In this document: positions 13,687 to 47,914 of the stretch, in pieces
Position numbering within the stretch: position 1 is the first letter of the stretch
Layout of the letters: each line of letters begins with the position of its first letter
IMG/VR virus record: IMGVR_UViG_3300017648_000198
Location: 1,732-65,731 of that record
Strand: one strand, 5' to 3'
Length of the DNA: 64,000 nt
DNA from: a virus
Taxonomy: Duplodnaviria > Caudoviricetes
The notes under the pieces: generated by a model
What the model was told of the DNA's origin: nothing
What the model saw: only the letters and a program-made list of their open reading frames with translations
The model's database searches: none
Made by a program: the position numbers and the translations under genes

Positions 13687-14118
13687 ACGGCACACGTAAC
13701 GGAAATTACCGGACGCTATTCGGAAACGGTCGCGGCGGCTGCGTTAATGGCGGCGGGATGGACGGTGCATCGACCGGTCACGGACGAGCCATACGATATC
13801 TTGGCGACTGATCCCGTGAATGGCGAGCATTACCGTATTCAGGTCAAAACGATTCGTCAACGTACGGACCGCGGCGGCGAACTCGTTGTATATGCGAAGA
13901 AAGGGAGCGGCGAGCCTTATACGAAATCCGACGCTGACTATATCGTTGGCGTGTGGGCGGAAAACGGCGTCGCACCTCGCGTGTATATGTTCGAAGTGCG
14001 CGGAATCGGCGAGTACTGGGCGAGTGAAGCATCGGCGGCTGCACGTTGGGTCGAATTACCGCTCGCACTCGATAGGGAATCGTTGACAAGTGTAGGTGAT
14101 ACGGAATGTCATACGTAG
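13687..14118 (+). CDS. PD-(D/E)XK endonuclease (group I intron-associated type); probable ACG start
   Basis: G..SE...AAL...GW.V.RP..EPYD.....IQVKT; the conserved N-terminus precedes the first ATG (13747). Confidence 0.75.
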   Translation, partial: TAHVTEITGRYSETVAAAALMAAGWTVHRPVTDEPYDILATDPVNGEHYRIQVKTIRQRTDRGGELVVYAKKGSGEPYTKSDADYIVGVWAENGVAPRVYMFEVRGIGEYWASEASAAARWVELPLALDRESLTSVGDTECHT

Positions 14119-14333
14119 AATTACCGATTAACCCGCCGGAGCCGCGCGAAGTAGCGGAGTGTGCGTGGTGCGGCGGTGAGATTTACGAAGGTGACGAGGT
14201 TGCCGTAGTTATTGGAAGTTTCGGTAGTCGCACGGAATATATTCACGCAGACAACGAGTGTAAAGCTGAGTATGCGTACAGCGTTGCATACGAACTGGTA
14301 GGCGTAATCGACCGTTATAAAAATATAGAATAA
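14106..14333 (+). CDS. Small Zn-binding hypothetical protein
   Basis: CAWC...HADNEC. Confidence 0.6.
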   Translation: MSYVELPINPPEPREVAECAWCGGEIYEGDEVAVVIGSFGSRTEYIHADNECKAEYAYSVAYELVGVIDRYKNIE

Positions 14334-14347
14334 AGGTGGCGTTAATA

Positions 14348-15373
14348 TTGGCGAAATTAAACGTTGTGACTCCGAATAACGAAGTGACAATCCGTACGGA
14401 AAGCGGCGAAACGGTGACGTACCGTAAATCAAACCGAACTTACGAGGAAGCGGTTGTTGGCGATATCGTTCAGCACAATGCGAACGGATTCGATTACCTA
14501 CCGTACGGTTCATTTTACGAAGTCGTTACAGGTAAGGATGATGATAGCGGTGTAATTGACGAGGAAGGCGATTTTCTAACGTTAGATGATGATTTTGAAG
14601 TCTACGAAAAAGTAACCGAGGACAAAACGGAACGATCCGATGTTATCACGATTGAAGGCAGACAATATCGTAAGGCTAAACGTCCGGCGGCTGTGGGCGA
14701 GCGTATTTTAATTATCGGATTGGAAAACGGAAGTGTTGGAGGCGCATATTACCGCATAGGAGATGCCGCAGTAGTGGAATATATCGGAAATGTAGATGTT
14801 CTTGCGGATTTTAAAGGCAATGAATACGTTCGTAACGCCGGCAGGTGGTACGTAGGGCATGATGATTACGTCGTACTCGAACCGATTACTGAAGAGTCTG
14901 CGGAACCAGCCGAGCCTGCCCGCATTCCGGTCGGCACTTACGTTAAGGTTACGAATGGCGACGATTTACCGAACGGTGCAATCGCAAAAATAACGGTTGA
15001 TGACGGGAACGACGGCTACTGGCCATATAAATGCGAATTGCTCGACGGAAGTGACTACGACTGGCTTGAAGCGGACCAATTCGAAGTCCTATCAGAAGCC
15101 GACGCAAAGACAGCGGTCGAGGCAGAAGCGGAGCGTGTTAAATGGGCGGCGATTGGGCGCGAGGTTAACGAATATAAGGTCGGCGACGTTGTAGTAAACG
15201 TAGGCTGGGCGAGAGCGGGCTACGGCGAAGTTACTGAGGAATGTAACGGTAGGTATCGTGTGGCGTACTCCAATCCGGCGTATAATACATGTTTGGAAAC
15301 GGTCGATATAATTTCATTAGTAACTCCGGTAGAGCAGCGCTTTGACCGCCAAACTGACGGAGTGCTCCACTAA
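14348..15373 (+). CDS. Multi-module SH3/KOW-like hypothetical protein
   Basis: Repeated xVGD/xVGE beta modules; shares a domain with 31607..32677. Confidence 0.65.
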   Translation: MAKLNVVTPNNEVTIRTESGETVTYRKSNRTYEEAVVGDIVQHNANGFDYLPYGSFYEVVTGKDDDSGVIDEEGDFLTLDDDFEVYEKVTEDKTERSDVITIEGRQYRKAKRPAAVGERILIIGLENGSVGGAYYRIGDAAVVEYIGNVDVLADFKGNEYVRNAGRWYVGHDDYVVLEPITEESAEPAEPARIPVGTYVKVTNGDDLPNGAIAKITVDDGNDGYWPYKCELLDGSDYDWLEADQFEVLSEADAKTAVEAEAERVKWAAIGREVNEYKVGDVVVNVGWARAGYGEVTEECNGRYRVAYSNPAYNTCLETVDIISLVTPVEQRFDRQTDGVLH

Positions 15374-46853: not shown

Positions 46854-47064
46854 CAACATTAGGGTGGCTTTATACGGTGACGTATATCGAATAACCGCTT
46901 AAATTCAGGGAACCCGTAACGTAAAGACGACGGCAACCGTGAGCGAAACCTATCCACGCATAGCGTAATCACAAAGTAGATAGGGACGTGCAGAGACTAT
47001 AATAGCGGAATCTCTTATGAGATTGTGGGATAGTCCGATCCTATGAGAAATCATAGATAAGATG
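46854..47064 (+). mobile_element. ORF-less group I intron (211 nt) in the minor head gene
   Basis: Splicing CAT|...G|CCT restores FHPNCKHVV; P1 CCATC/GGTGG with U.G; ACCGC/GCGG P3; GACTA/TAGTC P7; AATCTC/GAGATT P8; CTATG/CATAG P9. Confidence 0.88.
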
Positions 47065-47112
47065 CCTAATTGTAAGCATGTAGTATTACCAATACGAGAA
47101 CCAAAAGAGTGA
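47065..47112 (+). CDS. Minor capsid protein exon 2 (PNCKHVVLPIREPKE*)
   Basis: Completes the HPNC.H motif; spliced product is 268 aa. Confidence 0.85.
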   Translation, partial: PNCKHVVLPIREPKE

Positions 47113-47155
47113 TGAAACCATTCGTCGCTCTTTTTGTGTTCAAGGAGGTATTATT

Positions 47156-47914
47156 ATTCGTGTTACTAATGTAAATGACGACTTCTTTAAGGAGTGGGGC
47201 AGAGACGTTGCTTGGGTTTATGGTTGGTTACTGACAGATGGTAGCGTTTCTAGTAAGACTGGACAAATAAAGTTGCAACTAAAGCACATCGATAAAGATG
47301 TCCTAGAAAAAATAAGAGATAAGTTGCAGTTTGATGGGAACATATATCATACGAAGTTAGAGGACGGAAGGGAAAGTTATTATTTAAGGGTATGTAGGCG
47401 CGATATGGTAAATGATTTAGGGAATTTAGGTATGCCCTTGTTTAACAAAACATTTACAACTAGTTATCCCGATGACTTGCCTACTGATTACTTTTGGGAC
47501 TTTATGAGAGGTGTAACCGAAGGAGACGGCAACCTCAAACACGGAAAGCGGTGGAACGACCTTACGGTAAGTATATTCTCCGCATCACCTCAATTCTTAC
47601 CGGCTGTACAGGCTAGACTGTACGAATATGATATTAACACCACTATTATCGAGAGGCCTCCAGGAACGTCCGGAAGTAAAGAGGTTATGTACATCTTACG
47701 TACAAAGGCAAACGCCGACGCATTGCGTTGGTGTTTTTTAATGTACAGAAACACTGATACGAATTTTAGGTTAGCTCGTAAGTTCGAGATTTTTAGAAAC
47801 TACGTCGAAGGTTATTACGACAGAAATAGGCGATCAAAACCAAGTATACAAATGATTGAAACTATTAGAAAAGAAATACCGGAATGTAGCGATAGTGAAA
47901 AAGATGTTGCATAG
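47156..47914 (+). CDS. Free-standing double-motif LAGLIDADG endonuclease; ATT start
   Basis: AWVYGWLLTDG (upstream of the first TTG at 47273) and FMRGVTEGDG; SD AAGGAGG 7 nt before ATT; AT-rich. Confidence 0.85.
   Translation: MRVTNVNDDFFKEWGRDVAWVYGWLLTDGSVSSKTGQIKLQLKHIDKDVLEKIRDKLQFDGNIYHTKLEDGRESYYLRVCRRDMVNDLGNLGMPLFNKTFTTSYPDDLPTDYFWDFMRGVTEGDGNLKHGKRWNDLTVSIFSASPQFLPAVQARLYEYDINTTIIERPPGTSGSKEVMYILRTKANADALRWCFLMYRNTDTNFRLARKFEIFRNYVEGYYDRNRRSKPSIQMIETIRKEIPECSDSEKDVA

Follow-up and report, generated by a model that had tools for sequence, protein, structure and literature searches.

Six predicted nuclease genes in the DNA of a bacterial virus very probably start at weak codons other than ATG, GTG or TTG, each behind a strong ribosome-binding site. 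The stretch that was analysed (64,000 nucleotides, here called the window) represents a temperate prophage of the siphovirus type, roughly 66 kb long, whose host is Paenibacillus-like. It is probable that the whole lineage has the habit of tuning, by means of the start codon, the translation of proteins which are low in copy number or harmful, the six genes of the window being included. In the following, NTG stands for ATG, GTG and TTG, and CTG is counted among the near-cognate, non-NTG codons. An 8-kb part of the window had no megablast match in a phage collection, and the nearest named phages showed similarity at the protein level only. A literature search for phage genes with non-canonical starts yielded nothing specific; the hidden HNH genes of the ShiLan type use GTG, unlike the near-cognate starts described here.

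Anatomy of the six probable start sites

The start codons, all on the + strand, are ACG at 13687, ATC at 17933, ATA at 19518, ATC at 29198, ATA at 35024 and ATT at 47156, and the distances between the end of GGAGG and the start are 8, 9, 8, 4, 8 and 7 nt, respectively. These features can be read directly from the DNA, and the codons and spacers of the original prediction were borne out at every coordinate. In the same gene order, the first in-frame NTG follows 20, 29, 105, 24, 45 and 39 codons downstream of the start. The sole exception is a GTG at position 35015, which lies within the Shine-Dalgarno sequence (SD) of the gene at 35024 at zero spacing, as had been pointed out before. Duplex energies with the anti-SD ranged from -12.6 to -16.1 kcal/mol for the six genes, the mean of the 81 NTG genes being -12.6; within the window, the SDs of the six were stronger than the average of the NTG genes (Mann-Whitney P = 0.013).

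The window was scanned twice, with one scan seeded on every GGAGG and a second, independent one on every stop-to-stop ORF. A strong SD, a near-cognate codon at 4–9 nt and the lack of a usable NTG coincided in these six genes only, among about 87–95 genes of the window, and no convincing seventh case emerged from either scan, in agreement with the earlier statement that the other genes checked use ATG, GTG or TTG. With control codon sets, the ORF scan flagged NTG-less ORFs at neighbouring codons, whichever set was used; gene-family clustering and a control with a host genome were therefore relied on. That all six genes encode nucleases would be expected by chance with P between 6e-8 and 8e-5 (8–20 of 87 genes counted as nucleases). 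Logan contigs from two runs of one soil sample were identical to the window across 29000–48000. An initiator-like phage tRNA which reads AUH was considered and rejected, since the window contains no tRNA genes.

Core recombination nucleases

The gene for a PD-(D/E)XK nuclease (PDDEXK_5; 13674..14118) has its SD, GGAGG, at 13674–13678, the ACG start at 13687 and the stop codon at 14116–14118, and encodes 143 aa. Its nuclease activity is predicted from a match to PF11645 (34.3 bits, cut-off 26.1), and the match to phrog_5018 spans residues 3–131, thus beginning at residue 3. A gap of about 190 nt separates the gene from the preceding one. In about 29 relatives the homologous first codon is ATG, TTG, ACG, ATC or ATA and is followed by a conserved Ala-His pair with synonymous variation; an automated tally gave ACG nine times, ATC six, ATA two, TTG three and ATG seven times, i.e., non-NTG codons in 17 of 27, from which reading of the alignment by eye differs by one or two.

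A Cas4/RecB/YqaJ-like PD-(D/E)XK exonuclease of 352 aa is encoded at 17919..18991, with the SD at 17919–17923 and the ATC start at 17933, 14 nt beyond the upstream stop. The assignment is based on phrog_1706 (E = 1e-50) and on the invariant residues D169 and E187-x-K189 of a D...E-x-K motif in the alignment; homologues are named YqaJ or Cas4 in their source databases, and no Pfam match was obtained at E ≤ 0.01. In a Paenibacillus-type clade (98% SH-aLRT) the start was ATC, ATT, ATA or CTG in 24 of 24 genes and NTG in none, and in most of these clade members a stop codon stands immediately before the start. Outside this clade, TTG was found in Bacillus members, which form a clade of their own, and one phage had ATG. 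A tabulation across relatives gave a non-NTG codon in 25 of 31. The tree requires 12 codon changes, just two of which are changes of class. The supposition that such genes are mis-annotated proved justified here: the public call for the exonuclease of the window begins at ATG 18020 and is truncated to 323 aa, and the calls for many homologues run to 283–325 aa, with 80–90% coverage.

The gene for a RuvC-like Holliday junction resolvase (19505..20051; SD at 19505–19509, ATA start at 19518, 177 aa) overlaps with its 5' end the last part of an upstream ORF (19319–19543) in the +1 frame. The protein matches PF02075 with 31.8 bits (cut-off 22.2) from residue 21, which is model position 7, and also phrog_159. 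Residue 19, the Asp of a YDIS motif, is presumably the first catalytic Asp, by analogy to D7 of E. coli RuvC; the first NTG, confirmed at 105 codons downstream, lies beyond it. At the SD-led position, relatives possess ACG, CTG, ATA, ATT, TTG or ATG, with non-NTG codons (ACG, CTG, ATA, ATT) in about 17 of 33 loci, or in 16 of 22 in a second tally.

Exonuclease, RuvC and PD-(D/E)XK nuclease showed the highest non-NTG frequencies of all families across the relatives. Their conservation is a matter of direct observation: in about 30 related prophages, which are independent assemblies, the corresponding position of the alignment is occupied by ATG, TTG, ACG, ATC, ATT, ATA or CTG. Because the feature recurs while the codon turns over, sequencing errors and pseudogene decay are excluded for the three core genes, as judged from the aligned sequences. 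At many loci of relatives an in-frame stop immediately precedes the near-cognate codon, and therefore a start further upstream is not possible there. Termination-reinitiation may contribute at the starts of the exonuclease and RuvC genes, since these adjoin or overlap the end of the upstream gene.

Free-standing homing endonucleases

Three of the six genes encode free-standing, homing-endonuclease-like proteins. The HNH_3 + AP2 gene (29189..29701, 167 aa) starts at ATC 29198 behind the extended SD GAAGGAGGTG, with a short spacer of 4 nt from GGAGG; its frame opens just six codons upstream of this ATC, and there is no NTG in between. The HNH_3 + HTH gene (35011..35611, 195 aa) has its SD at 35011–35015 and starts at ATA 35024 or perhaps at ACG 35021. 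The double-motif LAGLIDADG gene (47144..47914, 252 aa; SD at 47144–47148, start at ATT 47156 or ATT 47153) is situated about 100 nt 3' of a group I intron (46844–47057), the sole Rfam match in the window at the gathering threshold, and about 290 nt after the previous gene. Homing is predicted only, from scores of 42.1 and 35.2 bits for HNH_3 (cut-off 24.8) and of 45.2 bits for LAGLIDADG_3 (cut-off 22.5); the AP2 score of 29.4 bits is under its cut-off of 33.3. Matches of the three proteins in tblastn begin at residues 1–8, and the first LAGLIDADG motif, at about residues 20–32, precedes the first NTG (47273). Together with the N-terminal matches of RuvC and the PD-(D/E)XK nuclease, this upholds the claim that in most cases conserved residues lie upstream of the first NTG.

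Whether homologues keep non-NTG starts had been proposed as a check. They do so for the three core nucleases, but not for the HNH-AP2 endonuclease: every homologue of the latter, both in the relative L008/L013 and in 37 other phages, has NTG. The search of related loci gave C-terminal matches only for the HNH gene at 35024 and no close relative of the LAGLIDADG gene.

Start codon use in the lineage and its explanation

Among SD-led genes, non-NTG starts account for roughly 8–11% in the phage lineage versus 1% or less in a sample of the host chromosome, an enrichment which was seen directly. Complete genomes of relatives contained 6–8 such genes each, with 53–75 called genes per genome; in 400 kb of a host chromosome, this caller found 164 SD-led ORFs, of which a single one, infC, was convincing as a non-NTG case. 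Cultivable candidate lysogens with a relative of this prophage are P. roseus MAHUQ-46, P. pinihumi DSM 23905, P. tuaregi Marseille-P2472 and P. amylolyticus Lu_Sv_028. The automated caller sometimes took the second codon (ACG) after ATT or CTG, which was corrected by eye. In four Paenibacillus genomes infC starts at ATT behind GGAGGTG, and hence the classical IF3-sensitive arrangement is present in the hosts. Phage SPP1 has 0 of 80 non-NTG starts (PMC6316719). A 688-aa tape-measure piece of G006 with an ATA "start" was not counted, because it aligns to the middle of tape-measure protein (TMP) profiles. The genes of relatives with non-NTG starts also include those for Pol I, NrdE, NrdF, NrdI, two methyltransferases, primase, a DnaC-like loader, a DNA-binding protein, portal and the 3D-domain protein, and sister loci differ in which genes carry them.

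According to the original prediction, DNA-cutting enzymes would be under a translational throttle of their own throughout the genome, core as well as acquired homing nucleases being included. Part of this stands: the six genes of the window are without exception nucleases, the top frequencies across relatives belong to exonuclease (25/31), PD-(D/E)XK nuclease (17/27) and RuvC (16/22), and three independently acquired homing endonucleases, with NTG homologues elsewhere, have the trait in common. As judged by their sequences, nucleases are indeed the most consistent users of weak starts. Specificity for the class, however, did not hold up and is quite unlikely. Two intron-encoded endonucleases of the window, of the HNH_3+NUMOD4 type (23269..23952, + strand, good SD of -11.7) and the GIY-YIG, I-TevI-like type (24654..25217, + strand, strong SD of -13.6), use ATG, as do TerL, the gene of DNA polymerase I with its 3'-5' exonuclease (15373..17556, + strand, weak SD of -7.6, overlapping the upstream stop) and a DHH protein; the ATG starts at 23269, 24654, 42760, 15373 and 2421 thus count against such a rule. 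The tabulation by function across the family points in the same direction, since the non-nuclease genes of relatives listed above share weak starts. The 3D-domain gene (31182..31607, + strand) had been named as a possible counter-example; in the window it is none, having ATG at 31182/31188 behind a weak SD (-3 to -4), but it is a true one at the level of the family, because 11 of 13 homologous loci combine ATC with a strong SD. Homologues of DNA polymerase I in relatives likewise start at ATC, ATA or ATT. A compensation between weak SD with ATG (Pol I and 3D in the window) and strong SD with ATC (relatives) was considered and is not general, since strong SDs precede those Pol I genes of relatives, too, that start at NTG.

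For the genes at 29198, 35024 and 47156 only, the selfish elements could be decaying or silenced, their ATG having been lost by mutation without functional throttling, since homologues elsewhere use NTG. Degeneration once fixed belongs to the life cycle of homing endonucleases, and the low codon-usage scores of the three genes (-0.05 to 0.03), like the NTG starts of all HNH-AP2 homologues and the isolation of the LAGLIDADG gene, would fit. Such decay is nevertheless unlikely, in view of uninterrupted ORFs of 167–252 codons, in which HNH and both LAGLIDADG motifs are retained, and of a near-perfect SD kept at working distance from a near-cognate, not a random, codon, in three of three free-standing endonucleases. 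Near-neutral drift would apply more widely: extended SDs would make codon identity matter little, and ATG would decay without adaptive value in genes which tolerate lower output. Prophages have small effective populations, many unrelated families are affected, the codon changes often (12 times on the exonuclease tree) and the affected genes vary between sister loci. Yet none of the 24 diverged exonuclease genes starts with ATG, GTG or TTG, although one transition or transversion would turn ATH into ATG; in the window the trait is missing from all major structural or abundant genes, SDs and ORFs remain intact, and the host, with the same ribosome, stays at 1% or less, all of which makes drift improbable as the explanation. 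Far less probable still are sequencing errors, a downstream NTG with a truncated protein, or a frameshift or read-through fusion to an upstream ORF. The overlap of RuvC in the +1 frame and the exonuclease start 14 nt past a stop might suggest the latter, but the gaps of about 190 and 290 nt mean that no upstream ORF abuts the PD-(D/E)XK or LAGLIDADG gene for fusion or coupling, and the codon immediately before the start is a stop in many relatives. With initiation at a downstream NTG, RuvC would lose its presumed catalytic Asp and the LAGLIDADG protein its first motif, and conserved N-termini would be missing; the window is matched by contigs of two runs, and the feature recurs in about 30 independent assemblies.

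The preferred and probable explanation is a dosage knob in the start codon, with the actual initiation site and the selective reason being inferred. A long SD/anti-SD helix would fix the 30S subunit, and the initiator tRNA would then pair with two of three bases; proofreading by IF3 would lower the efficiency of initiation several-fold to tens-fold relative to AUG. As nearly every gene has a strong SD, the identity of the start codon could serve as the knob, in the order ATG > TTG/GTG > near-cognate, and would determine, in long polycistronic messages, how much of each protein is made. Proteins of which little is required, or which might do harm in quantity, would receive the weak setting. In this genome these would happen to be only the three nucleases of recombination and the three homing endonucleases that are free-standing; in relatives the set would also extend to DNA polymerase, RNR subunits, methyltransferases, primase, portal and the 3D-domain protein. 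The link between low copy number and weak starts was read post hoc from this heterogeneous list of genes. The near-cognate starts could in addition render the set of replication, recombination and homing genes IF3-sensitive, like the ATT-initiated infC of the host, so that translation would rise as free IF3 per 30S subunit falls (e.g., upon prophage induction, host shut-off or a shift in growth rate); such a lineage-wide switch of timing or dosage, encoded purely in start codons, appears rather doubtful. The size of the attenuation is taken over by analogy from S. aureus, where AUU and AUA starts mapped by Ribo-RET were all behind extended SDs and reporters with these codons, ACG and CTG being outside that measurement, gave about 10–30% of AUG expression (PMC13009471).

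Annotation pipelines for phages and prophages accept only ATG, GTG and TTG, and would lose or truncate roughly one gene in ten of this lineage; as related prophages use weak starts for many low-copy proteins, gene finders cut these proteins short. Recombination nucleases and DNA polymerase are affected, and portal and primase in some members. The lineage consists of widespread Paenibacillus/Bacillus prophages, in which weak starts are used at about ten times the rate of the host, and one gene has kept to them although its sequences diverged widely and the codon itself changed again and again. The lineage offers a natural system in which selection on initiation efficiency, proofreading by IF3 and compensation by the SD could readily be studied in Bacillota, and bears on the taming of mobile endonucleases inside a viral genome.

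Comparison with known systems

The arrangement resembles that of infC (IF3) and pcnB with AUU in E. coli, and of infC (AUA), ccpN (AUA), cvfC1 (AUU) and citZ (AUA) in S. aureus and B. subtilis, where a weak start stands at normal spacing behind a strong or extended SD (PMC13009471). Here, too, a one-mismatch codon is found where the N-terminus of the protein needs it, with no usable NTG, and behind GGAGG cores with spacers of 4–9 nt; as in homologues of infC, pcnB and ccpN, the non-canonical start is conserved for the core genes. In those cases translation is lowered, by measurement in S. aureus, whereas the lower output of the phage genes is predicted. Cases of the infC type are isolated, with four in the whole S. 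aureus genome, while here six of about 90 genes are concerned, and the phage lineage differs further in including ACG and CTG and in the turnover of codons among ATH, CTG and ACG.

A DNA-cutting selfish enzyme which is kept low or delayed through translation initiation is also represented by I-TevI of T4 and mobE of Aeh1, the expression of which is reportedly controlled by sequestration of the ribosome-binding site and by late promoters (Gibb and Edgell). In those, however, RNA structure or transcription timing acts with AUG, whereas here the three free-standing enzymes have near-cognate starts and the two intron-encoded ones ATG. Transposase frames of IS elements, e.g., IS911 orfB, are initiated at AUU, and are comparable in that a mobile element limits, by a weak start, the amount of an enzyme that cleaves or recombines DNA; one gene per element is concerned there, often together with frameshifting, but several unrelated genes of one virus here.

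Probable near-cognate starts in the window

In six genes of the window a strong Shine-Dalgarno (SD) sequence precedes a near-cognate codon instead of ATG, GTG or TTG (NTG): ACG 13687 in the PD-(D/E)XK nuclease (8 nt from the end of GGAGG to the start), ATC 17933 in the exonuclease (9 nt), ATA 19518 in RuvC (8 nt), ATC 29198 in HNH-AP2 (4 nt), ATA 35024 in HNH (8 nt) and ATT 47156 in LAGLIDADG (7 nt). The codons, spacers and frame openings of the original prediction all matched the sequence. The first in-frame NTG follows after 20–105 codons, the sole exception being GTG 35015, which lies inside the SD. 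Functions were borne out by Pfam and PHROGs, with PDDEXK_5, RuvC and LAGLIDADG_3 for the respective genes, a Cas4/RecB/YqaJ-like exonuclease (phrog_1706), and HNH_3 in both homing HNH genes, accompanied by a sub-threshold AP2 match in one and an HTH domain in the other.

Two scans, neither seeded from the predicted list, were carried out. One recorded what follows every GGAGG in the window; the other determined the anti-SD duplex energy before each NTG or near-cognate codon of every stop-to-stop ORF. Both yielded the same six genes, and neither gave a further convincing non-NTG case in the window. Mean SD energy was -14.2 kcal/mol for the six genes versus -12.6 kcal/mol for the genome (P = 0.013). 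All other ORFs that lack an SD-led NTG could be accounted for in another way: the nrdE ORFs at 24098 and 25496 are internal exons of a gene split by two introns, 52914–53309 extends the tail chaperone by a frameshift, a few (15373 and 21336) have an ATG coupled to an upstream stop, and the 3D-domain gene has an ATG behind a weak SD.

The window represents nearly the whole of a 65,731-bp IMG/VR provirus record assembled from a soil metagenome, with almost all genes on the + strand. Its DNA polymerase shares 63–64% identity with its counterparts in Sporosarcina phage Lietuvens and Bacillus phage phi18-2; closer relatives are prophages in Paenibacillus, Cohnella, Brevibacillus and Fontibacillus. 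The nrdE gene (region 22478–26389) consists of three exons (22478–23197, 24098–24541, 25496–26389), and the two insertions, for which Rfam gave no call at the gathering threshold, encode HNH_3+NUMOD4 (23269–23952) and GIY-YIG/I-TevI-like (24654–25217) proteins, both with ATG starts. A group I intron (46844–47057; Rfam, 57.4 bits) lies where the minor head protein gene (46095–46862) ends, about 100 nt upstream of the LAGLIDADG start. The HNH gene at 35024 is inserted between genes for a PAPS-reductase-like protein (388 aa) and a 499-aa C5 methyltransferase, in a block (32877–38340) which also encodes a dNMP kinase and an N6 methyltransferase. Two ORFs that immediately precede the tape measure gene (53313–57242; 1309 aa), 52522–53004 and 52914–53309, overlap, the second lacking an SD of its own; the overlapping ORFs at 52537–53309 are the usual -1 frameshift arrangement of tail chaperones. 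Some 870 nt (41432–42302), directly upstream of a small terminase-like gene (42302), contain no convincing ORF or tRNA, only orphan GGAGG motifs (42019, 42174); this stretch may serve in packaging or specify a non-coding RNA.

Conservation of the starts in related phages

Relatives were found with the exonuclease protein (five from IMG/VR and 26 prophage loci in GTDB genomes), and the SD-led start of each homologue was read. The exonuclease start codon immediately follows a TAA or TAG stop in most loci, thus no upstream start is possible. Within a clade of 24 members (SH-aLRT support 98%) the start was always ATC, ATT, ATA or CTG; the Bacillus-type sister clade has TTG, and Lietuvens alone has ATG. 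The exonuclease tree shows 12 codon changes but only two changes of class (ATG, TTG/GTG, non-NTG). CTG starts (L015, L019 and L020 on this tree) arose at least twice within the ATH clade; ATH to CTG needs two base changes, presumably by way of a transient ATG or a non-functional CTH intermediate.

For the PD-(D/E)XK gene an automated tally gave ACG 9, ATC 6, ATA 2, TTG 3 and ATG 7, where reading by eye moves single counts by one or two. Codons 2–3 keep encoding Ala-His and vary only synonymously (GCA/GCG/GCT, CAC/CAT), and ATG-GCG-CAT of phi18-2 matches ACG-GCA-CAC of the window codon for codon. The annotated start of the Lietuvens homologue, ORF59 (L002:17755-17790), is a GTG that follows the SD AAAGGAG after one base; at normal spacing this homologue has no near-cognate codon (ACA-TCG-GCA-CAC). 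About half of the RuvC loci start with ACG, CTG, ATA or ATT, the remainder with TTG or ATG.

Sequencing errors or pseudogenes are incompatible with these data, since the diverged ORFs (48–66% identity) are intact with invariant catalytic motifs and keep a perfect SD, while the near-cognate codon rotates. It is this comparative evidence that weighs most in favour of real starts. Initiation at the downstream NTG would deprive RuvC of its presumed first catalytic Asp (residue 19, ahead of the Pfam match, which runs from residue 21 at model position 7), the PD-(D/E)XK nuclease of twenty profile positions (phrog_5018 aligns from residue 3), the LAGLIDADG protein of its first LAGLIDADG motif, and both HNH proteins of conserved N-termini (tblastn matches from residues 1–8).

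The starts of the three free-standing homing endonucleases are less secure than those of the core nucleases. Their homologues in a relative (L008/L013) start with GTG or ATG, relatives of HNH-AP2 in other phages had an NTG at the expected place in 37 of 37 found, and the search for related loci revealed nothing close to the LAGLIDADG gene; the non-NTG starts of all three are thus peculiar to the window phage. These may be selfish genes in early decay, but neither ORFs nor motifs are damaged, and all three genes have retained a strong SD before a codon with one mismatch. At each of the three sites the window is matched by Logan contigs of two runs; this support is weak, because both are from a single sample, the source sample itself.

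Specificity and comparison with the host

All six non-NTG genes of the window encode nucleases, as had been predicted; the probability of this by chance is about 1e-6 at 11/87 nucleases and 8e-5 at 20/87. The proposal that DNA-cutting enzymes are throttled as a class is weakened by five genes with ATG starts in the window, i.e., the intron-encoded HNH-NUMOD4 (23269) and GIY-YIG (24654) endonucleases, TerL (42760), Pol I with 3'-5' exonuclease (15373) and a DHH protein (2421), and by non-nuclease users in relatives. The observation was confirmed, and its interpretation is supported in part.

A weightier test of specificity than the count within the window is the family-wide tabulation, for which all SD-led ORFs of related loci were clustered and non-NTG starts compared at homologous N-termini. 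DNA polymerase I starts with ATC, ATA or ATT in about 16–18 of 30 loci, at a conserved I/L/M-(E/D)-(I/V)-K-L-T-L-N. The 3D-domain gene, suspected as a counter-example, is none in the window (ATG), but is one in relatives (ATC in 11 of 13). Non-NTG starts were also found for NrdE (5–6 loci), NrdF (3–6), NrdI (2), an N6 methyltransferase and a sigma-like protein. Three complete relatives possess six to eight such genes each among 53–75 called genes. Further cases there are CTG starts in a second methyltransferase and a small membrane protein, ATA in a DnaC-like loader, ATT in primase and, for a phrog_12720 DNA-binding protein, ACG in one phage and ATA in a second; in the relative phage genome G007 (L108:2417-4000, minus strand) the portal protein appears to start at ATA (behind AAAGGAGG, SD -18). 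Methyltransferases in loci of G007 and the relative G005 show apparent CTG and ATC starts. Across relatives, nuclease families use such starts most consistently (58/80 genes), but not exclusively.

As host control, the same caller was run on samples totalling 400 kb, spread along the P. amylolyticus chromosome (host of one relative). Among 164 SD-led ORFs infC was the only convincing non-NTG start, other flagged sites being borderline or adjoining an NTG; the host rate is therefore ≤1%, versus about 8–11% in the phage lineage. The infC genes of all four Paenibacillus hosts examined (L035–L038) have ATT 8–9 nt behind GGAGGTG, the classical IF3-autoregulatory arrangement; each of the four genomes contains an additional, weaker infC-like match. 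In SPP1, a well-annotated Bacillus phage, the count is 0/80 (PMC6316719).

Possible mechanism and relation to known systems

Start-site profiling in S. aureus mapped ribosomes on AUU or AUA of infC, cvfC1, ccpN and citZ, all four behind extended SDs, and reporters with these codons reached ~10%, and at most 30%, of AUG expression (PMC13009471). By analogy, fMet-tRNA would initiate the phage genes on a near-cognate codon held in the P site by a long SD helix, and IF3 proofreading would then lower the output. A tRNA search of the window found no phage tRNA for specially decoding such starts. Since nearly all genes of the lineage have strong SDs, the start codon is the obvious free parameter for relative dosage in long operons; TTG is common in the DNA-metabolism module of the window (9/41 genes). 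The weak-start genes encode catalytic or low-copy proteins, with no abundant structural proteins among them, and in the Paenibacillus clade the nucleases apparently never tolerate a strong start.

Annotation is affected: the public call for the window exonuclease is 323 aa from ATG 18020, many database homologues have 283–325 aa and cover only 80–90% of the protein, and for RuvC a 72-aa fragment is the most an NTG-only caller can give.

A literature search yielded no paper describing dense, maintained weak starts in phage genes. The type of mechanism is already known from the weak-start attenuation of infC, pcnB and ccpN; new are density, long-term upkeep and functional bias in a virus. The phage genes differ from these examples by their number (six here and about one in ten across the lineage, ca. 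10 times the host rate), by long-term maintenance with codon turnover, ACG and CTG included, and by a bias towards recombination nucleases and other low-copy DNA enzymes.
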